Below are positions 17,577 to 27,911 of a stretch of DNA of 64,000 bases, in pieces (positions within the stretch are counted from its first letter, which is position 1; every line of letters begins with the position of its first letter). Both the position numbers and the translations under genes were made by a program. Source of the stretch: Promethearchaeota archaeon (GTDB lineage: Archaea; Asgardarchaeota; Lokiarchaeia; Sigyniarchaeales; SOKP01); NCBI GenBank assembly GCA_048940925.1, contig JBHLOC010000003.1, forward strand, positions 146,583 to 210,582, written 5' to 3'. The notes beneath the pieces were generated by a model that ran no database searches, had not been told where the DNA came from, and was given only the letters and a program-made list of their open reading frames with translations.

Positions 17577-18281
17577 ATGATTCCAATGTCAGAAGAAGAA
17601 ACATTAGGGATAATTGATAAAACTCTTCAAGCTGCTGAGGCAAGTTTTCAAGAATTTATTAAAGTGTTAGAAAAATCAAGAATTGAGTTGGCTAAGCTTG
17701 AAAATGACAAAAAAGAACTAAGTACAGAAAAGGAAAAATTAGAACACGAAAAGATGCAATTAGAAGGGGAGAAAACAAAATTGGAAGCTGAAAAAAAACA
17801 ATTAGAATTTGATAAACTGAAGTTAGAAGAAGAAACTGAAAAATTGGAAAAGGAAAAACAAGAGAGAGATCAAAAAATTGGTTCATTAACAGAAGAACAA
17901 ATGAGACTATTAGATGAATATAAAAGTGTAAAAGTCGAATTACAGAAATTTATGATAGCTGCAGAAGAAGCAGAAGAAGCAGAATATAATTTTGAAAGAG
18001 TACGTGCTTTATTATCTATTTATACCGTGCTAGTTTCAGATATATGGCAAGGACAACCTCATTATCAGATTTTAAAATTACTTCATGGTGAGAAGGAAGA
18101 GATGACACGTGATCAGATCAAGAGCACGACGGGTATAGGAGGAGCATTTGTATTACATTCAGTTCAAGAACTAGCTAAGGTTGGTCTTGTAGAATATGAT
18201 ATGGATACTAGTAAAGTCAAGTTAAAAGAACGTTTATTTCCAAAGAAAGCCTTAGAAGAAAAGGAAGAAAAAATAAGTTAG
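17577..18281 (+). CDS. Coiled-coil protein with C-terminal winged-helix-like domain
   Basis: Eight consecutive L-x-x-E/D-K-like heptads; C-terminal ILKLLH...TRDQIKSTTGI...VQELAKVGLVEYD. Confidence 0.7.
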   Translation: MIPMSEEETLGIIDKTLQAAEASFQEFIKVLEKSRIELAKLENDKKELSTEKEKLEHEKMQLEGEKTKLEAEKKQLEFDKLKLEEETEKLEKEKQERDQKIGSLTEEQMRLLDEYKSVKVELQKFMIAAEEAEEAEYNFERVRALLSIYTVLVSDIWQGQPHYQILKLLHGEKEEMTRDQIKSTTGIGGAFVLHSVQELAKVGLVEYDMDTSKVKLKERLFPKKALEEKEEKIS

Positions 18282-18314: not shown

Positions 18315-19361
18315 TTATTTTGCTATTACCATTTCGTGAAGTGTACTTCCTTTTTCTGTATATGTTTTACCATCATGTATTATCTTGAGTATAAAGTTAG
18401 AATTTAATCTAAAATAGCCAGGCTTTAATTTTAAAATATTTTTTGCTATAAAACGTGTGATAGGATTTAGTTCATAAAGCAAATTATCAGCATCAATAAT
18501 CTTTTCAACATTAAGAATAATTTCATGTTGTTGAGGAACATCAATCTTTATGAGCGTTGGATATTGATTTCCCGCTTTTTTATTAAATTTAAAATTTTCT
18601 TGGCTTAGTTCAAATTCTCCTGTACTCAGGATAACATTTTCATTTTTAGCAATCATAAGCACTTTTATTGGATAATTATCCATTTTTTTATTACATTTGA
18701 TATATGCGAAAACCACACTAAAATTCTGGGAATAAATTCGCCCCCAATACCAATAATCTATTATGAGAGCAAAATTAAAATTTAGCCAGTTATGATCGTG
18801 ATATCCAATTCCCTTTACTTTGATTACTTCATTATGAACTTTAATAGTCCCTTCTACACTTGCGCGGGGAAGAGCTACACACCACCCAAAATAGTTTGAC
18901 TTACCAAACTCAATATATCCTTTCCCAGGTTTCCAGCCTTTTACTAAGGCGCTATATTTTAAATGCATGCCATATTCACCTTCATCTAAATAAATTTCGT
19001 AGATAGGAAATTTTTCATTAGAAAGATCAACAGATATATAATTTTTGCCAATTTGTACATCTGCTACATCTTGAGAAGCTTTAAGATCAGAGTGATGGTA
19101 GTTAATTACATTTTGTATTTTTTCTCCATTCGGTTTATAGATCGTAATCTCTACACCTGTCTTCCCTGTTTGTTGATGTTTTGCTCGAAAAAAGCCAATT
19201 ACAGTGTATCCATTCTCAAGACGAGCATCAAAATACCACCATTCAATAGTTCCTCTTTTTTTCATATCTATATGTAATGCATCATCTTTTGGTTGAATGG
19301 GCTTTATCTCTCCATCTTTTCGACCAGGTCCTAACCATTTTTCTTTAATCTTTTCACTCAT
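18315..19361 (-). CDS. AttH/CrtC-like (lipocalin-like, hydroxyneurosporene synthase-like) protein
   Basis: EWWYFDA, GYHDHNW and WYWGR motifs. Confidence 0.7.
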   Translation of the reverse strand: MSEKIKEKWLGPGRKDGEIKPIQPKDDALHIDMKKRGTIEWWYFDARLENGYTVIGFFRAKHQQTGKTGVEITIYKPNGEKIQNVINYHHSDLKASQDVADVQIGKNYISVDLSNEKFPIYEIYLDEGEYGMHLKYSALVKGWKPGKGYIEFGKSNYFGWCVALPRASVEGTIKVHNEVIKVKGIGYHDHNWLNFNFALIIDYWYWGRIYSQNFSVVFAYIKCNKKMDNYPIKVLMIAKNENVILSTGEFELSQENFKFNKKAGNQYPTLIKIDVPQQHEIILNVEKIIDADNLLYELNPITRFIAKNILKLKPGYFRLNSNFILKIIHDGKTYTEKGSTLHEMVIAK

Positions 19362-19402
19362 ATTATTAGTCTCTCTTATTCCTAAGCTTTATTAAATATA
19401 TT

Positions 19403-19819
19403 CTAGTTATTGTTATTCATTAAAATTTTAACCAATTTCAATAAATATAGTAATTTACTGATTCCTTGCAACTTTATTTTACGAATTATCCATTTTTTAG
19501 CGATTCCTAATAATGACATTCTATTCATGACAAACGCAAGAAAAATTTGACTATCCATTTGTAAGAATCCATCCCAACCTATATTTTTCTTTTTTAGATT
19601 TTCTTTTGGTTTGTTTGGGATACTTTCTACCCTTAATTCACCGTTATCAATAATAATCAATGCCGCAAAATTTACATTTATTGCATTTATGAGAATTTTA
19701 ACATGTGTATCTTCAAACTTCTTTTTAAATTTATCAGTTTCATTTAAAGGGGCAAGCAAATTATAAATAAGTGCACCGAAACCTCTAATCTTATTATTTC
19801 CTATTTCTACTTCTGACAT
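19403..19819 (-). CDS. SCP2 sterol/lipid-binding-like domain protein
   Basis: Size and pattern IIIDNGELRV...DGFLQMD...KIKLQG. Confidence 0.55.
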   Translation of the reverse strand: MSEVEIGNNKIRGFGALIYNLLAPLNETDKFKKKFEDTHVKILINAINVNFAALIIIDNGELRVESIPNKPKENLKKKNIGWDGFLQMDSQIFLAFVMNRMSLLGIAKKWIIRKIKLQGISKLLYLLKLVKILMNNNN

Positions 19820-19830
19820 TTTACTATTTA

Positions 19831-21396
19831 TTATTCCTTTGATGAGATATAAAATCCTGAATCTGCTATATTGTTCGGATCAAATGATTCTTTAATCTTT
19901 CTAAGCCAAATGTGGTAATTTGACATATGAGGTCCAAATAACTCATGCATTCGTGTTCCTTCTACGAAAAAGGGTGCACCGAGATGCTTAAGCAAGTCCA
20001 ATTGGTTACTTTCTTCCATATATTCTGCCATTCCTTTAACGCTATTTTCATCTGTTTGATCAAACATAGTAGGTGATTCCATATGAAAAAAATGTCCTGA
20101 TTCATAAGACGTCATCCAAGTTCCTTCTCCAAAATCATTGGCTATTACTCCCTTATTAATATAATTTTTCTTTATAGGGATATTCGTTTTCGTACTGCGA
20201 AGACATACCGCTGCTGTGTCTGCAACACCCTTTGAGGACTGAAAACCTCCCGTTGCTATAAATCCATGTAATCCTAGATTAGAACGTAAAGCTTCAGCAT
20301 AAAAGATTGATTTAGGAGTATAGATTCTTCCAATAATGTTTTTTAACTTAAATTTTTGTAATAAATGTTCCATTACTTTTTGTTTGTAATTAAATTCTCC
20401 TTTTGTACGAGCGGCAATTAATACAACGATAGGAGCTTTCATACTCCCAATTGTTAGTTTATCCATTAGACTTTCAATAGAATTAGAAAAGATAGCCATT
20501 ACCGCAAAACCACTTAAATAACTACACATAAAAGAAATTTCTTCCTCTTCCACCCCTAACATTATCGATTCGAGCTTCTTAAAATTCCCACAATCCATTA
20601 CATATAATTTCATATAATTAGGAATATCAAAACCATAATTAGGAGAATATCCTTTAATATTATATTCTGTACTGCAAGGATAAGGAAAAAGTTTTATAGC
20701 TACTCGAGTAAACACTCCAATACCGGATTTTGCACCTGCCCAACCACGCATTATTCCCCTTAAACTTGGACCTGGACCATCACCATGATACCAATCTGAT
20801 CCCTTCTTAAGACCAAGAGAACCTAATCTTAAAACTTCTCCATCAGGTAATACCCACTCAACACCTAGTACATTACGGGCCGAATGTCCTGTTTGAGGGG
20901 AGGTAAAACCCGGACCATTCATTGAAGTATGACTCGCTAATGGAGAAACCATTGGTCCTGCACCAGGCATATGACAGTTAAGATTATATTTCATTAATTC
21001 TGCTTGTAGTTGTGCCCCACTTACATACGGTTCAATTACAGCATACAGGTTTTTCTCATCAATTTTGACTATTCTATTCATTCTGCGGAGGTCTAATATA
21101 ATAGAATTGTCTGTTGAAGGTTGATTCCAAGGACCAAGACCAGTGCTTTGAGCCTTGAATACAATTCCATATTTATTGCATAGTTTGACTATTTTCTGTA
21201 CTTCCTCAGTTGAACTTGGTAAAATTACTGCTTTGGGAACCGGGGAGAAGGGAATTGGTTTTTTACCATCCATATAATTAAAGATTTCCATGCACCAATT
21301 ATATGCATAGACATTAGTAATTACCTCCCCATCATTGATATTTTCGCTTCCAACGATTTTTTCGAAATCTATGTAGATCTCCTTATCAAGAACCAT
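19831..21396 (-). CDS. FAD-binding oxidoreductase (GlcD/VAO family)
   Basis: VILPSSTEEVQKIVK, LDLRRMNRI, LGVEWVLPDG, IKESFDPNNI. Confidence 0.9.
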   Translation of the reverse strand: MVLDKEIYIDFEKIVGSENINDGEVITNVYAYNWCMEIFNYMDGKKPIPFSPVPKAVILPSSTEEVQKIVKLCNKYGIVFKAQSTGLGPWNQPSTDNSIILDLRRMNRIVKIDEKNLYAVIEPYVSGAQLQAELMKYNLNCHMPGAGPMVSPLASHTSMNGPGFTSPQTGHSARNVLGVEWVLPDGEVLRLGSLGLKKGSDWYHGDGPGPSLRGIMRGWAGAKSGIGVFTRVAIKLFPYPCSTEYNIKGYSPNYGFDIPNYMKLYVMDCGNFKKLESIMLGVEEEEISFMCSYLSGFAVMAIFSNSIESLMDKLTIGSMKAPIVVLIAARTKGEFNYKQKVMEHLLQKFKLKNIIGRIYTPKSIFYAEALRSNLGLHGFIATGGFQSSKGVADTAAVCLRSTKTNIPIKKNYINKGVIANDFGEGTWMTSYESGHFFHMESPTMFDQTDENSVKGMAEYMEESNQLDLLKHLGAPFFVEGTRMHELFGPHMSNYHIWLRKIKESFDPNNIADSGFYISSKE

Positions 21397-22701
21397 CTAT
21401 ATTGCCTCCTCTGCTTTCTGTTTATAAGTTTTAATATCAAATCCAAGAGCGATTAGTATTAATTCACTGATATCATAAAATTTTAATTTAGAACCAGTTT
21501 CTTTAATTGCATCTTGCAAATTTGTTGAACAGAAAGGACACGTAGACGTAATTATATCTGCACCTGTATCTTCCGCTTCTTCTATTCTATTTTTTGCTAT
21601 TTTTAGTGCAAAGTCTGGAAAAGCAGATTTAACTCCAGCTCCAGCTCCACAACAATAAGAATATTCTTTAATTCTCTCCATCTCAACAAGATTTAATCCA
21701 GGTATTCTTCTGATAATATTTCGCGGGATTTCATAGATACCTTGTGAACCTGTTCTTTTAGGTTTAGGTGGAATATTAATAGACACTAAAGGCATTAAAT
21801 GTACGGTGTCACCATCCCATTCCTCATACTTTTCAGCATTTCTTCCTAAATGGCAGGGATCGTGATATGTGACCTTCAAAGGCACATCTTTTATAAAGTG
21901 TAACTGCTCTTTCTCAAGTAATTCATTAAAAAACTCTACTGTATGAAGAACACGAAATTTGTATTTTCTAAAGAGTGGGTAATCAACTTTAAACGTATCA
22001 TAACACCCAGCACAACTAAAAATTACCGTCTCTATTCCTTTTGATTCAATTACATCAAGATTTTTGTTGAGATACTCTCTAAAAGTATTAATATCTCCAG
22101 TCCTCAAAACAGGACTCCCGCAACAAAATTCTTCATGTTGTATAATATTAAAAGAGACTCCAGCAGCTTGCATAATCTTAACAGTTGCTAACGCTATTTC
22201 TTTCCTCCTATAAGATGATGTACATCCTACAAAATACAAGATTTTTGCATCTGGATCAAGTTGAATATCATCAGGGAGCCAATCCATTCTTTTTTCATGA
22301 GGCTCATTATACGGATTATTTATTTTTTTCACTGCATCAATGTATTGCTGTTGTTTAGGCATAGGACCATATCCGCTATCCACTAATTTTTCTCTTAGCT
22401 TCATGATAATTTCGAGTGGTTCTAAAGTATTTAAAAATTTACAAGCAACTGCGCAACCACCACATGCAGTACATTTATACACAATTTCCCGTAATTCTGG
22501 TGAGGGTTGTAACCTACCCATTTCTAAAGCTAAAGCTAAAATAATACGACCTCCAGCACTATATGCATGATAATTGTATAAATCTATGGATGGGCATATT
22601 GTTGCATATTTTTGGCTCTTGATTTGGAGTTGTGGTATCCACTTGCATATAGAGCAACGGAGACAGCGTTTGATCATTTGGTTGTATTCTTCTTCATTCA
22701 A
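21397..22701 (-). CDS. Fe-S oxidoreductase with CCG domains (GlcF/HdrD-like)
   Basis: CLRCSIC, CTACGGC, CCGSP, TYHDPCHLGR, CCGAGAG, CPFC. Confidence 0.9.
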   Translation of the reverse strand: MNEEEYNQMIKRCLRCSICKWIPQLQIKSQKYATICPSIDLYNYHAYSAGGRIILALALEMGRLQPSPELREIVYKCTACGGCAVACKFLNTLEPLEIIMKLREKLVDSGYGPMPKQQQYIDAVKKINNPYNEPHEKRMDWLPDDIQLDPDAKILYFVGCTSSYRRKEIALATVKIMQAAGVSFNIIQHEEFCCGSPVLRTGDINTFREYLNKNLDVIESKGIETVIFSCAGCYDTFKVDYPLFRKYKFRVLHTVEFFNELLEKEQLHFIKDVPLKVTYHDPCHLGRNAEKYEEWDGDTVHLMPLVSINIPPKPKRTGSQGIYEIPRNIIRRIPGLNLVEMERIKEYSYCCGAGAGVKSAFPDFALKIAKNRIEEAEDTGADIITSTCPFCSTNLQDAIKETGSKLKFYDISELILIALGFDIKTYKQKAEEAI

Positions 22702-22885
22702 AGAATAAAAGATCCCCTTTTATTTATCAAAATTGTTTAGTTTTAAATGATTACTCATTTATTCCTAGTGAAATAAAGTAATTATTAATTGAATAAAATT
22801 ATATCTATTAGTTTTTTCAATTATGATTCTTAAATAGGTATAAATATAAAACAAAGTAAAAAAAATATTAAAACGATTAGATAAT

Positions 22886-23761
22886 TTATTCAAGTTCTAG
22901 CAGTTTTTCCCAATATTCTTTAATACTCCAGATTTTATTGATTTTTATTTTAAAAGCAATTTTGCTAAGAATTTCTCTAATCATTTTTGATTGTAAATAG
23001 TGAAAATTAGGAGTAATTGCACAGATCATAAAAGTTTTAGTTTCATTATCAGAAACTCCTTTTTCAAACTTATCTACTAAGGCATAAACTTCTAGTAAAT
23101 CTCGTACAACTCTTATTGTGAATTGATTAGTTTCCAAAACTTCATCAAACTTATAAATTTTGATTAAAGAAGAATACAATTGAGAAGTAAGTGCTTTAAG
23201 ATTAAGCGATTGAATCTCGTTTATAGGGAAATAATTTTCTAACACTGGTCCAGTCTGATTATCCCAAACCAAATAAAATATATAAAAAAAATCAGCTCGA
23301 GAATGCCTTTTTAAAGAAGGTTCCTCAAATTTCAATATATCTTTTAATTCTTTTTCGATAAGCCTAGAGTCTTCAATTATTTTTTCATTATTTTTCACAG
23401 TTTTTTTTATTTTTTTCCTTAATTCTTTAGACTTAAATGGTTTGGTAATATAATCATCAGCTCCTAATAATTTTCCAAACCTTACATCATCTGGTTCAGT
23501 TTTGCCTGATAGAAAAAAGAATGGTATCATTGACCATTCTAAGTTTTCAGCCACTTTCATGTAGAAATCATACCCATCCATTTCTGGCATTAATATATCA
23601 CTGATTATAAGATCTGGCAGTATTTCGAGATCAGAAAGAATTTCTAAACCTTCTTTCCCATTTGAAGCAGAGATTAAATTAAAATCATTCATTTCCAAAT
23701 AGATTTTTAAGTTTCGGGCCAGAATTTTGTCATCTTCAACTATTAAAACAAAAGGCTCCAT
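22886..23761 (-). CDS. Response regulator receiver domain fused to a longin/uDENN-like domain
   Basis: REC: LIVEDD, DLIISDILMPEMDG, FLSG, ITKPF. The C-terminal domain begins YIFYLVWDNQTGPVLENYFP. Confidence 0.8.
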   Translation of the reverse strand: MEPFVLIVEDDKILARNLKIYLEMNDFNLISASNGKEGLEILSDLEILPDLIISDILMPEMDGYDFYMKVAENLEWSMIPFFFLSGKTEPDDVRFGKLLGADDYITKPFKSKELRKKIKKTVKNNEKIIEDSRLIEKELKDILKFEEPSLKRHSRADFFYIFYLVWDNQTGPVLENYFPINEIQSLNLKALTSQLYSSLIKIYKFDEVLETNQFTIRVVRDLLEVYALVDKFEKGVSDNETKTFMICAITPNFHYLQSKMIREILSKIAFKIKINKIWSIKEYWEKLLELE

Positions 23762-23890
23762 AACAAATATCTCATTTAACTAGCATTATAATTCTATGAC
23801 GCCTCTATAATAAAAGAATCCATATTTAATATTTATGAAAAGGAAGATCTTTAAAAAACTCTGATTCTAATATGAATTATAAAAATTTAA

Positions 23891-25354
23891 TTAGGTATCA
23901 AAACATAAAACTCCCGGATTTAATATATTATTAGGGTCAAAGATCTTTTTTACTTTTTTCAAAGCTATTTGGGTCGAATCTTGATGTCGTTTAAAGACTT
24001 CTTTTGCCCAAAGACCATAGGGTCTATTAAAAAAAGCACCAGAATCCATCAATTTAATACTGGCTTCTAGGAATTTTTCCTTAGCATTCATAATATCTTG
24101 TTTGTCAAATGGATTATAGAAAATATCAAATTCACAGTGATATGATGTTCCTTGATTGATTGGTTGGATATATATTCCTAAATTAAGAGGGATTAATTTT
24201 TCCATAATTGAGATAAATTCTGGTATTTTTTCAAAGTTAGATATAAAGAATATATCTTGATATCCTCCACTTAATCTTAACTTCCAAGGATTTATATCTG
24301 CTTGATTTAGAAAATTTAAAATAATGTCATTATTAAGGATATTATCTTTTTTCAAAATTGATATATTTTTTTCTTTCATTATATCCCTAATATCTTCTTC
24401 TAGATATGAGATTTTTTCTTTCGCAAATTTACCCCTTCCTGATAATACAAAAATTAAATTCCACTTAGGTAAACTATCAGCTAATTCTATGATATCACTC
24501 GAATCTTGCTTAACTAAGCAAGCTAAATTTAAATTATTTAAAATTAGTAATTCATCACATAAACGAAATTTTAGCAATTCAAATTGAAGGTTCAACAACT
24601 CTTGAATAGTATCTAAATAGATATGATGTACTTCTTGAATAGAAGGAAGTAATTCTAATTTTAATGTAGCCCATGTTACAATCCCTATACTACCTTGTGC
24701 TCCTTGAATAACCCTAAATGGACTAAATTGAGTGGGTCCCATAGGGTTTACCTGAGCTTGTCCTGCTCTTCTCTGTTGTTTTATACTACCTGGACCTGCT
24801 GCAGTTCCTGTTCTAAATAATTCACCATTTCCAAAAATTACTTCTGTACATAACAATGGATCCGAACTATCCCACATATAACGGGGAATTATTACAGGTT
24901 CTCTTTCGAGTGCAGCAGTGAGTACAGATTTCGATGCTCTTGGATGTAAAGGGATCATTAATTTTAATCCCTTTTTCTGAAGATATGGAATTAAATCACC
25001 AAAAGTCACACCAGGTTCTACCATAATTACTCTGTTTTTTCTGTCTACGTTTCGAATTTTAGTTAATTTAGAAAGATTCAATATAATGCAATTATCATTT
25101 CGGGGAATTGTATCTCCATGGTGCCGAGGACCAGATCTAGAACTTATAGGGATAACAGAAAAGTTTAAAGCATTAGCCAATTTCATAATATTTTCAATTT
25201 GGTAAACATTTTGTGGCCAGATGATATATTTAGGTGCTTTCTCAGGAAAAAAACTCAAATCCTTGGAAAAATTCTTTATAATCTGAGGATTATCTGAAAG
25301 ATTTTTTGAACCACAGATTTTAACTAGTTTTTGATAAATCTGCTCTTGATTCAT
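23891..25354 (-). CDS. FAD-binding oxidoreductase (GlcD/VAO family)
   Basis: VEPGVTF, GAQGSIGIVTW, KVKKIFDPNNILNPG. Confidence 0.9.
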   Translation of the reverse strand: MNQEQIYQKLVKICGSKNLSDNPQIIKNFSKDLSFFPEKAPKYIIWPQNVYQIENIMKLANALNFSVIPISSRSGPRHHGDTIPRNDNCIILNLSKLTKIRNVDRKNRVIMVEPGVTFGDLIPYLQKKGLKLMIPLHPRASKSVLTAALEREPVIIPRYMWDSSDPLLCTEVIFGNGELFRTGTAAGPGSIKQQRRAGQAQVNPMGPTQFSPFRVIQGAQGSIGIVTWATLKLELLPSIQEVHHIYLDTIQELLNLQFELLKFRLCDELLILNNLNLACLVKQDSSDIIELADSLPKWNLIFVLSGRGKFAKEKISYLEEDIRDIMKEKNISILKKDNILNNDIILNFLNQADINPWKLRLSGGYQDIFFISNFEKIPEFISIMEKLIPLNLGIYIQPINQGTSYHCEFDIFYNPFDKQDIMNAKEKFLEASIKLMDSGAFFNRPYGLWAKEVFKRHQDSTQIALKKVKKIFDPNNILNPGVLCFDT

Positions 25355-25503
25355 GATTAATTTACTTTAATTATAACCTATTTCTTCATAAAATACAGCA
25401 AACTATTAAGATATTCTCATAAAAAAAAACTAAATTTTATATAATTGATAAGTATTATTAAACAATTATATTTTTCAAAAAGTAATAAAAAAAGGAAATT
25501 CAC

Positions 25504-26907
25504 ATGAAAAAATATGATTTAATTATAGTTGGAGCTGGACCTGGGGGTTCTGTTGCTGCTAAAACCGCTGCAGAACGAGGTCTAAAAACGATTTTTTTTG
25601 AACGTGGTAGGAAACCTGGTGAAAAAAATTCTTCTGGTTGCGGATTAGGACCAAGAATGTTCAGAGACTTTCCTGAGATGATGAATGAGCTAACTCCAGA
25701 AAAATGTCCATCAATGAGAGAGGGACGTGCAGCGAGGAATTATTTCATTAATAAAGATGATATAGTAGCGGGTTATATAATGACTCGCCCAACCGAATCT
25801 GTATCATATGAACCAGCAAAAAGATGGATTACTATGAACATATATCGCAGTGAATTCGATCCTTGGATTTCTGAATTTGCAACAGATGCAGGAGCGGAAT
25901 TAAAAACATCAACTCTTATTGTGGATTTAATAAAAAATGAGGGAAAAGTATGTGGTGTAATCGATGAAAAAGGAGAGAAATATAGTGCTCCCCTTGTTAT
26001 TGGGGCAGATGGAGTCATATCAACTGTAGCACAAAAATCTGGATTGAGAAATAAATGGGCTCAAAATCAAGTTACATTAACACCCCAGTATGATTTTCAT
26101 GCATCTTCGGATAAAATCGATGATATTATGGGTGATGAAGCTCTTGCTATATGGTGGGGCTCAACTTTTCCGGCATCCTATCAAGTTTTTTTTAATGATG
26201 GTTTTCATCAAGGTTTAGGCAACTGGATGAATTGGTGGGATAAAAATCCATTATATTATTTGAATAGGGTAGTGAATTTAAAGTATTACCAGAGGTTATT
26301 GAAAATTCTTGGAGCTAAGCCGCGAGAACTTCAAGTACATTTACTTCCTTGGTTAGATTATCCATATAATACTCATACCGATGGAGTAATATTGATTGGA
26401 GATGCTGGGGGTTTTCCATGTCCTCTTGAGGCAGAAGGGATTTACCCTGCGATGATAACTGGAAAAATTGCTGCTGAAATAGCTGTCGAGAGTGTTACCT
26501 CGGGTGACGTTTCTAAAATAGCATTAAAAAAGTTTGATGAAGAATGGCAAAAAACAAGTATAGGAGAAGAGTTTGAAGCAGGGAAAGAGTTATGGACAAT
26601 TTGGGAAGCCTTACCATTCAAACCTAAAGAAACTATGTCGTGGTTTATTCCAATGATTATGGAAATTCTTGGTGGTATTTTTGATTGGTCCCAACCCCAT
26701 ACAAAACGTGTACGACAAATTGTGAGTCAAGTTAAATCGTATATGCCAAAAGCAACACCATTTATAATGACTTATGTGCTTCCTCTAGTTGCTAAGATTT
26801 TTGAAGATGATTTAGATAAAATATTAGATCCAAAGAAGATCATGAGAGTTTTACCTAAACTTATAGATATGCTACCACAGAAGAAAAAGAAAAGAGGTGG
26901 TAAATAA
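25504..26907 (+). CDS. FixC/geranylgeranyl-reductase family flavoprotein
   Basis: YDLIIVGAGPGG, GEKNSSG, IGADG, LIGDAGG. Confidence 0.85.
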   Translation: MKKYDLIIVGAGPGGSVAAKTAAERGLKTIFFERGRKPGEKNSSGCGLGPRMFRDFPEMMNELTPEKCPSMREGRAARNYFINKDDIVAGYIMTRPTESVSYEPAKRWITMNIYRSEFDPWISEFATDAGAELKTSTLIVDLIKNEGKVCGVIDEKGEKYSAPLVIGADGVISTVAQKSGLRNKWAQNQVTLTPQYDFHASSDKIDDIMGDEALAIWWGSTFPASYQVFFNDGFHQGLGNWMNWWDKNPLYYLNRVVNLKYYQRLLKILGAKPRELQVHLLPWLDYPYNTHTDGVILIGDAGGFPCPLEAEGIYPAMITGKIAAEIAVESVTSGDVSKIALKKFDEEWQKTSIGEEFEAGKELWTIWEALPFKPKETMSWFIPMIMEILGGIFDWSQPHTKRVRQIVSQVKSYMPKATPFIMTYVLPLVAKIFEDDLDKILDPKKIMRVLPKLIDMLPQKKKKRGGK

Positions 26908-26909
26908 AA

Positions 26910-27179
26910 ATGAATTTTGAATTAGATGGATTAACTAAAAGAATATTCGGTACAGGAGATTTTATTTCAATAGATTATAATAAATGTAATAATTGTGAGC
27001 GTTGTTTAATTATATGCGTAATGAATTTATGGAGAAAAAAAGATGGTATAATTCATATTGTTGACGATTACCAATCAAAGTGTTTAGAATGTGCAGCTTG
27101 TTATCAAGTTTGTGATAGTGGGGCAATTCAATTTCAATATCCTGCAGGAGGAACAGGGATAGTAATTGAAAAAGGTTAA
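26910..27179 (+). CDS. FixX-like ferredoxin
   Basis: CNNCERC...C, CLECAAC...C, FQYPAGGTG; starts 2 bp after the FixC-like gene. Confidence 0.85.
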   Translation: MNFELDGLTKRIFGTGDFISIDYNKCNNCERCLIICVMNLWRKKDGIIHIVDDYQSKCLECAACYQVCDSGAIQFQYPAGGTGIVIEKG

Positions 27180-27347: not shown

Positions 27348-27911
27348 ATGAGCAATTTATCTAGATACCTATTTAGCCTTTCTATATTGGCTAGTAAAGA
27401 TGTTGGTAAAAAAATGTTAAGAAGATTTTTACCTAATACATCCCAACGGAGGACTGCTCATACTATTGGAGTTGAATTCTTCATTAAAGATATAGAAATT
27501 GCTGGTAAAAGTATAAGACTTACAATTCACTTATATTTCTATGAAGAGGAAGATTTACCTGATATAAAACATTCTCTAATAAGGAGTGCTGCTAACAATC
27601 AAGGAGTGTTATTATTGTACGATATCACCAACTTAAAATCGTTGACCATATTGTCTGAATGGTATAAATTGCTGAAAAAAAACGTAGAACGGGATATTCC
27701 TTTTTTCTTGGTAGGGAACAAAAAAGACTTAGAAGAACATCGAGAAGTATCTAAAGAGCACATAGAGAAATTTAAAGAAAAATGTGATATAACTACATCT
27801 ATGGAGATCTCTCTTAAAACGGGAGAAAATGTGGAAGAAATGTTTGTAGGAATAACAAGACTAATAATTACAATCCTTCATCCAGATTTAATACAAGAAC
27901 TAAATGAATGA
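27348..27911 (+). CDS. Rab/Ras-like small GTPase with degenerate G1 and G3
   Basis: TIGVEF, LLYDIT, LVGNKKDL, EISLKTGENVEEMF. G1 reads ASKDVGKK and G3 lacks DxxG. Confidence 0.85.
   Translation: MSNLSRYLFSLSILASKDVGKKMLRRFLPNTSQRRTAHTIGVEFFIKDIEIAGKSIRLTIHLYFYEEEDLPDIKHSLIRSAANNQGVLLLYDITNLKSLTILSEWYKLLKKNVERDIPFFLVGNKKDLEEHREVSKEHIEKFKEKCDITTSMEISLKTGENVEEMFVGITRLIITILHPDLIQELNE

Follow-up and report, generated by a model that had tools for sequence, protein, structure and literature searches.

A probable orphan response regulator of a Lokiarchaeial genus with a predicted longin output domain and no arginine finger

A gene in a 64,000-nucleotide stretch of a Promethearchaeota genome (the window, that is, the whole stretch analysed here) is best explained as encoding an orphan two-component response regulator with a longin output domain. 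The protein joins a published class of receiver (REC)-longin fusions and has an informative defect: its predicted longin domain keeps the WD...GP hairpin of the GAP-type longins and carries an aspartate at the position of their catalytic arginine. We tentatively propose that it acts as a phospho-switched, non-catalytic adaptor on or beside a Rag/Arf-like small GTPase. Eukaryotes use longin-domain GAP complexes (GATOR1, folliculin and C9orf72-SMCR8) to control membrane traffic and nutrient signalling; the origin of these complexes is traced to Asgard archaea.

Results

An intact receiver at the head of the protein

The reading frame is intact and begins with an ATG that agrees with the start codon of 29 aligned orthologues; the surrounding window has about 30% G+C and contains archaeal genes, for example for TFIIB. 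We recovered 115 homologues of about 290 residues, and those that carry an organism name come from Promethearchaeota/Lokiarchaeota and other Asgard MAGs. Pfam recognizes the receiver (Response_reg) with an E-value of 1e-23 and 84 bits, for a cut-off of 30.2. All the expected residues, E9-D10-D11, D55, S85 and K107-P108, are present; in 30 orthologues E9, D11, D55, S85, K107 and P108 are invariant and D10 is nearly so. The full-length AlphaFold2 (AF2) model superimposes on solved receivers with an rmsd of 1.2-1.6 Å (Foldseek). These data bear out the initial annotation, which had described an intact receiver with its acidic pair, phospho-Asp, serine and Lys-Pro. It had also noted that no kinase gene is adjacent, and indeed none of the 25 HATPase_c matches of the genome lies on the same contig (C77).

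Behind the receiver, the AF2 model has a long linker helix (residues 111-143) and then a segment with pLDDT below 50 (residues 144-156). The C-terminal domain that follows, of about 133 residues, is covered by no Pfam model; the protein ends with it at residue 291, and a C-terminal DENN module is absent.

Table 1. Coordinates of the regulator gene and its parts, of the neighbouring genes and of the paralogous loci. Positions are those of the window unless a locus is named; L009 is G000:C30:12000-23000.
Feature	Position	Strand	Basis
REC-longin response regulator, type 1, whole gene, 291 aa	22886..23761	-	ORF and translation
Receiver (REC) domain, aa 5-119	23405..23749	-	Pfam PF00072, Foldseek, coordinates checked
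Phospho-acceptor Asp55	23597..23599	-	Invariant in 30 orthologues; codon checked
Helical linker, aa 120-158	23288..23404	-	AF2 model
Predicted longin-fold output domain, aa 159-291	22889..23287	-	
W166-D167-N-Q-T-G171-P172 motif, b1-b2 hairpin	23246..23266	-	Translation and family conservation
b4-b5 loop KGVSDNE, aa 234-240, including Asp238	23042..23062	-	Model and family alignment
Arg217, strand b3, invariant in type 1 clade	23111..23113	-	Orthologue alignment
234-aa coiled coil (E/K repeats) with winged-helix-like C-terminal part	17577-18281	+	
CrtC/AttH-like lipocalin protein	18315-19361	-	
138-aa protein	19403-19819	-	No Pfam match
Second FAD_binding_4	19831-21396	-	
CCG iron-sulfur protein	21397-22701	-	
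FAD_binding_4	23891-25354	-	
FixC-like flavoprotein and FixX-like ferredoxin	25504-27179	+	
Ras-family (Rab-like) GTPase	27348-27911	+	Pfam 1.3e-26
Type 2 REC-longin	L009 3229-4143	-	
MASE3-PAS histidine kinase, 725 aa	L009 4205-6382	-	
Rag/Arf-like GTPase, 182 aa, G4 = HKFD	L009 6494-7042	-	
ArsR-type wHTH	L009 7086-7421	-	
Third longin copy, contig C24	L003:541-3357	+	

A longin fold for the C-terminal domain

Because Foldseek with the full-length model returned receivers only, the C-terminal domain was modelled alone. An exhaustive phmmer search with residues 150-291 yielded 83 cluster representatives, which served as the alignment. The resulting AF2 model (pLDDT 87.4, pTM 0.81) has strands at residues 11-18, 22-29, 64-71, 74-84 and 92-101 and helices at 39-59, 106-124 and 131-141 (domain numbering). 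This b-b-a-b-b-b-a-a order is the longin order and not that of roadblocks: there is no N-terminal helix, and there are two C-terminal helices. Longins ranked top when the model was compared with 48,161 chains by VIA-align, and the model is closer to solved longin domains than to roadblocks. In Foldseek, the best matches are SEAC/GATOR1 chains (E 5e-4 to 2e-3), assigned to Npr2/NPRL2 by chain size; a Loki longin, sedlin, DENND10 and FLCN come next. In language-model features, an archaeal ESM-Atlas cluster comes nearest (score 0.96; 19% of its members have Pfam NPR2), followed by eukaryotic C9orf72-like/NPR2 (0.80) and DENND11 (0.78) clusters. The initial annotation had proposed a longin/uDENN domain of NPRL2 type here; both the order of elements in the model and a Foldseek list headed by chains that fit Npr2/NPRL2 in size agree with it.

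Sequence searches were silent on this relationship. Against PDB chains, the domain gave chance-level matches only, as a single sequence or as a 15-member profile, and a profile that still included the receivers found receivers only. Pfam assigned only the receiver to the whole protein, with NPR2 (PF06218), Folliculin (PF11704), Longin, Sedlin, Sybindin and uDENN unmatched. On the domain and 15 domain-only relatives nothing was significant, the best being one match each to Folliculin (E 0.14) and Afi1 (E 0.076). Nor do bona fide archaeal NPR2 proteins provide a bridge, since PF06218 has no match in the same genome and, across 201 genomes of the phylum, none that passes its cut-off. No sequence-profile link having been found, membership of the GAP-longin class rests on fold, motif and language-model features. 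All together, the modelled domain is supported as a longin fold whose nearest relatives are the GAP-type longins (NPRL2/Npr2, FLCN, Lst4 and C9orf72-SMCR8). A complex prediction for two copies of the domain scored 0.04 (mark 0.42) and speaks neither for a dimer nor against one.

The WD...GP hairpin is kept and the finger arginine is replaced

According to a 2025 survey, the GAP longins FLCN, NPRL2, SMCR8 and C9orf72 have a specific GP motif that closes the b1-b2 loop; some Asgard longins share it, and FNIP2, NPRL3, TRAPP, adaptins and DENND proteins do not have it (PMC12290439). In C9orf72, W33-D34 stands five residues ahead of G38-P39 (PMC12290439, PMC8213707), and a W33G/D34K mutant loses its ARF1 GAP activity (PMC8213707). 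W166-D167 and G171-P172 of the window's protein have exactly this spacing, and the motif is well conserved among the family representatives (W in 67/68, G in 63/66 and P in 65/68). Thus, the initial annotation of a uDENN/NPRL2-type opening motif holds in part: the WD...GP of the GAP-longin class is present, but the term uDENN is too broad, given that DENND proteins do not have the GP (PMC12290439).

The catalytic arginines of SMCR8 (R147) and FLCN (R164) are found in the b4-b5 loop (bioRxiv 10.1101/2020.04.16.045708). Most family representatives (49/63) have an arginine at the equivalent of residue 238, in the pattern D-x3-D-x3-R-G-G. The window's protein has Asp238 instead, aligned with the loop arginine of a paralogue in its own genome and standing where the catalytic Rag/Arf GAP longins NPRL2 (GATOR1), FLCN/Lst7 and SMCR8 have their finger. 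Because of this aspartate, GAP action by the protein appears unlikely.

Two types of REC-longin proteins

When 200 family members were sorted by their hairpin and loop motifs, two groups emerged. Type 2 proteins have WDDxxGP and the loop arginine, and their longin domain follows receivers, PAS, RsbRD_N, DUF1638, hybrid kinases or a Ras domain, or stands alone. Type 1, to which the window's protein belongs, comprises solely REC-longin proteins of 288-296 residues; their b4-b5 loop has no conserved arginine, only scattered ones at other positions, and in many orthologues the aspartate of the WD pair is an asparagine. Every type 1 protein has Arg217, a position that varies in type 2. A large type 1 subset (for example P0003-P0017) has the hairpin T-W-N-N-E-S-E-P, in which Asp and Gly are replaced and W and P are kept. 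Among metagenomic relatives, the longin domain also ends proteins that start with a Ras-family GTPase (P0168), DUF1638 (P0140), RsbRD_N (P0156) or PAS (P0161), as well as PAS-HisKA-HATPase-REC hybrid kinases (P0152, P0190); the loop arginine is kept in P0168, P0140, P0156, P0152 and P0190 and absent in the PAS fusion P0161.

In a maximum-likelihood tree of 68 REC-longin proteins, with midpoint rooting only, type 1 forms one clade (SH-aLRT 99), nested within a clade that holds seven intermediate sequences (support 100) and separated from type 2 by a long branch. Because the arginine is also present in members without a receiver, its loss in the type 1 lineage is the simpler reading. Type 1 proteins (E <1e-30, 54-69% identity) occur in 29 of the 54 species genomes of the window's genus and in none of 81 genomes from the other 12 genera of the family. 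Of 201 genomes of the phylum, 50 have a member of the longin family, mainly within two families, and type 2 was found in every sampled genome of the window's genus, so that co-occurrence of the two types is uninformative. The C-terminal half of type 1 is as conserved as the receiver (57-70% identity, with many invariant residues), which argues for a retained function.

A paralogous cassette with a kinase and a GTPase

The genome that contains the window (4.8 Mb, 90 contigs) has three copies of the longin domain. One is a type 2 REC-longin protein on contig C30, which aligns collinearly with the window's protein from end to end (37% identity, E 7e-67) and has WDDVMGP and the loop arginine. It is the last gene of a tight, co-directional row that runs wHTH, GTPase, kinase and REC-longin (Table 1). 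The cassette GTPase matches both Pfam Arf (1.5e-20) and Gtr1_RagA (4.6e-19), and among solved structures it is closest to the Loki RagA-like GTPase 8yl2 (E 3.5e-22). The four-gene order was found in 8 of 14 other genomes examined, and a kinase adjoins the type 2 regulator in 13 of these 14; in further lineages, other GTPase genes abut the type 2 regulator.

The third copy is part of a protein of more than 939 residues whose frame is open at the 3' end. It has an unassigned N-terminal region, an Arf-family GTPase domain (residues 148-308, E 1e-34), a longin domain with RWDENLGV and the loop arginine, at least two PAS domains and further sequence; similar open frames of about 1,130 residues are seen in several related genomes. 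The genome also has five further receivers in frames of 286-299 residues (G000:C51:13472-13789, C82:64945-65274, C82:69081-69404, C33:980-1303 and C85:41786-42097). At least four of them adjoin histidine-kinase matches; at E 0.01, the longin profile finds none of the five C-terminal halves.

The conserved type 2 cassette and the Ras/Arf fusions support a tie between the longin family and small GTPases. This evidence concerns the type 2 paralogue and not the protein of the window. The type 2 regulator shares with the latter the REC-linker-longin plan and the WD...GP, but the loop arginine, the wHTH, the GTPase and the kinase belong to type 2 alone. Of the initial annotation, which saw a phosphorelay wired to small-GTPase regulation, the link to small GTPases is supported for the family, through the cassette and the fusions; for the protein in which it was seen, the aspartate at the finger position makes GAP action unlikely.

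Gene neighbourhood of the type 1 regulator

In the window and at all five orthologous loci inspected, the type 1 gene is flanked by the same FAD_binding_4 gene on one side and the same CCG gene on the other, and these loci also share the divergent FixC/FixX genes, the second FAD_binding_4 and the genes for the 138-aa, CrtC/AttH-like and coiled-coil proteins. Gaps of 129 and 184 bp flank the regulator gene. The gene set from 18315 to 27179 resembles GlcDEF-type oxidases joined to lipid-handling proteins. The coiled-coil protein at its edge passed no Pfam cut-off and is 74% identical to the product of a gene at the equivalent cluster edge in another genome (locus L007).

In four of five congeneric genomes without type 1, FAD4, CCG and FAD4 are directly adjacent (the fifth locus ended before the upstream FAD4). 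The cluster would thus work without the regulator and is independent of it, and the type 1 gene is, by comparison of these gene orders, an insertion or a loss at the FAD4/CCG site. This weakens the idea that the oxidoreductase cluster includes the regulator as an integral part. Moreover, the type 1 genes all belong to a single genus, which makes the shared gene order weak evidence of a functional tie.

The initial annotation had named a GTPase gene 3.6 kb away among the small GTPases of the genome to co-fold with the regulator. It is absent from four of the five orthologous loci, and the GTPase near the fifth (L004) is only 35% identical to it. With some 98 Arf-model GTPase matches in the genome, one per about 49 kb, finding a GTPase within a few kb of a gene has a chance expectation of about 1 in 5. 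Being neither a conserved neighbour nor a rare kind of gene, this GTPase is unsupported as the cognate partner. In a pairwise alignment with a normal relative, which has GDAGCGKT in the P-loop and WDFAGEE in the switch II region, it shows ASKDVGKK and YFYEEE, respectively; it is probably not a working GTPase.

Discussion

The role that we favour for the type 1 regulator, with reserve, is that of a phospho-switched longin adaptor without catalytic activity, on or beside a Rag/Arf-like GTPase; it may well be so because Asp238 replaces the finger arginine and the WD...GP hairpin is kept. A kinase encoded elsewhere would phosphorylate Asp55, the receiver and the long linker helix would change state, and the longin domain, thereby exposed or paired, would bind its partner, most probably a Rag/Arf-like small GTPase or a GTPase-bound paralogous regulator. 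On this view the protein, like C9orf72, NPRL3 or FNIP, would be a holder or an adaptor and would have no GAP function alone. The analysis shows the identities of the domains, the fold, the motifs, the missing arginine, the paralogy and the distribution; that the protein binds a GTPase, what phosphorylation does to it and which kinase and partner it has are inferred. Three observations count against the proposal: the regulator has neither the arginine nor the kinase and GTPase neighbours that define the cassette, the hairpin of some type 1 proteins has eroded to W-N-x3-E-P, and the sequence searches gave no profile link to Pfam NPR2, Folliculin or Longin or to any PDB chain.

The loss of the arginine and of the GTPase neighbour speaks for a rival reading, in which the longin domain has been re-used for a partner other than a GTPase, such as an enzyme of the oxidoreductase/lipid cluster or the protein encoded at 17577-18281, and would tie phosphorylation to that cluster. 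SNAREs and adaptor complexes have longin domains that are known for binding helical partners and not GTPases, and the FAD_binding_4 and CCG flanks are the same in the window and at the five orthologous loci. However, with type 1 confined to one genus this gene order may be plain inheritance, the cluster is intact without the regulator in four of five congeners, and the 129- and 184-bp gaps suggest a transcription unit of its own; we consider such re-use unlikely. The regulator could also pair with its paralogue: type 1 would, through its longin domain, be the non-catalytic half of an asymmetric archaeal longin GAP, as C9orf72 is with SMCR8 and NPRL3 with NPRL2, in which the arginine-bearing type 2 protein acts on the Rag/Arf-like GTPase of the cassette. 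We hold this to be quite unlikely.

That the protein is still a GAP, with an arginine brought in from elsewhere (for example Arg217) or with the GTPase's own residues being positioned, seems improbable. In its favour, the protein has both WD and GP, the Arg217 of type 1 never changes within that clade but does so in type 2, and roadblock-type MglB acts as a GAP without an arginine finger (a GAP role of MglB is cited in PMC10933270). Yet the model places Arg217 halfway along strand b3, whereas the known fingers sit in the b4-b5 loop beside the GP hairpin, and a conserved GAP function would not predict that the finger position reverses its charge to Asp. Just as improbable is a role mainly at the level of the receiver, which would compete for the type 2 cassette kinase or be its phosphate sink, with the longin only as a dimerisation or decoy module. 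The receivers of the two types are close relatives in their own genome, type 1 has no kinase of its own, and every sampled genome of the genus has type 2. A sink, however, needs no output domain, whereas the type 1 longin is as conserved as the receiver, and many single-domain receivers are already present in the genome.

The architecture itself had been published before. Liu et al. (bioRxiv 10.1101/2020.10.19.343400; Nature 2021) describe NPRL2-like longins of Asgard archaea fused to receiver, kinase or PAS domains and propose that Asgard growth or nutrient control stays centred on prokaryotic two-component systems, with 'eukaryotic' regulators. The protein of the window is likewise Asgard, combines an NPRL2-like longin with two-component domains and leads to the same signalling proposal. 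Their text gives only the class; here it is split into an arginine-bearing type with a cassette and a type lacking both arginine and kinase. Our literature search found no description of REC-longin proteins beyond the class of Liu et al.

Among known systems, C9orf72 is comparable in that it is a longin subunit without catalytic activity in an Arf GAP, the C9orf72-SMCR8-WDR41 complex. The window's protein differs from it in having its longin fused to a receiver and in lacking a DENN module, which yeast Lst7 likewise lacks at its C-terminus, and no homology between the two was detected at the sequence level. In Myxococcus, the MglA/MglB/RomR-RomX module places a small GTPase under a roadblock/longin-superfamily protein and the receiver protein RomR (PMC13408092, PMC6785124). 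That module is bacterial, its receiver and roadblock are separate proteins, and MglB is a roadblock and not a longin. Thaumarchaeal REC-NitrOD3 (Galperin et al., PMC5847659) is an archaeal receiver with an output related to Roadblock/LC7 in place of a DNA-binding domain; it belongs to a different phylum, and its roadblock-like output has no WD...GP. The longin of a Lokiarchaeota Roadblock-Longin protein (PDB 8yqg) is 11% identical to that of the window's protein and is fused to a roadblock, not to a receiver.

Asgard regulators have been reported not to be matchable to their GTPases from genome layout (PMC10933270), and which GTPases are the targets of GP-motif longins has been posed as an open question (PMC12290439). 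The type 2 cassette offers such a match, of one Rag/Arf-like GTPase with one kinase and one arginine-bearing REC-longin protein. The value of the type 1 regulator lies mainly in being the arginine-less companion of the cassette regulator in the same genome: it is a natural paralogue in the same cell that could serve as a control, and possibly as a partner, in GAP, binding and phosphotransfer assays. If the two types did work as a pair, two separately phosphorylated receivers would gate a single GTPase switch, and a catalytic/non-catalytic longin pair would have arisen independently and recently, by gene duplication within one Lokiarchaeial genus.
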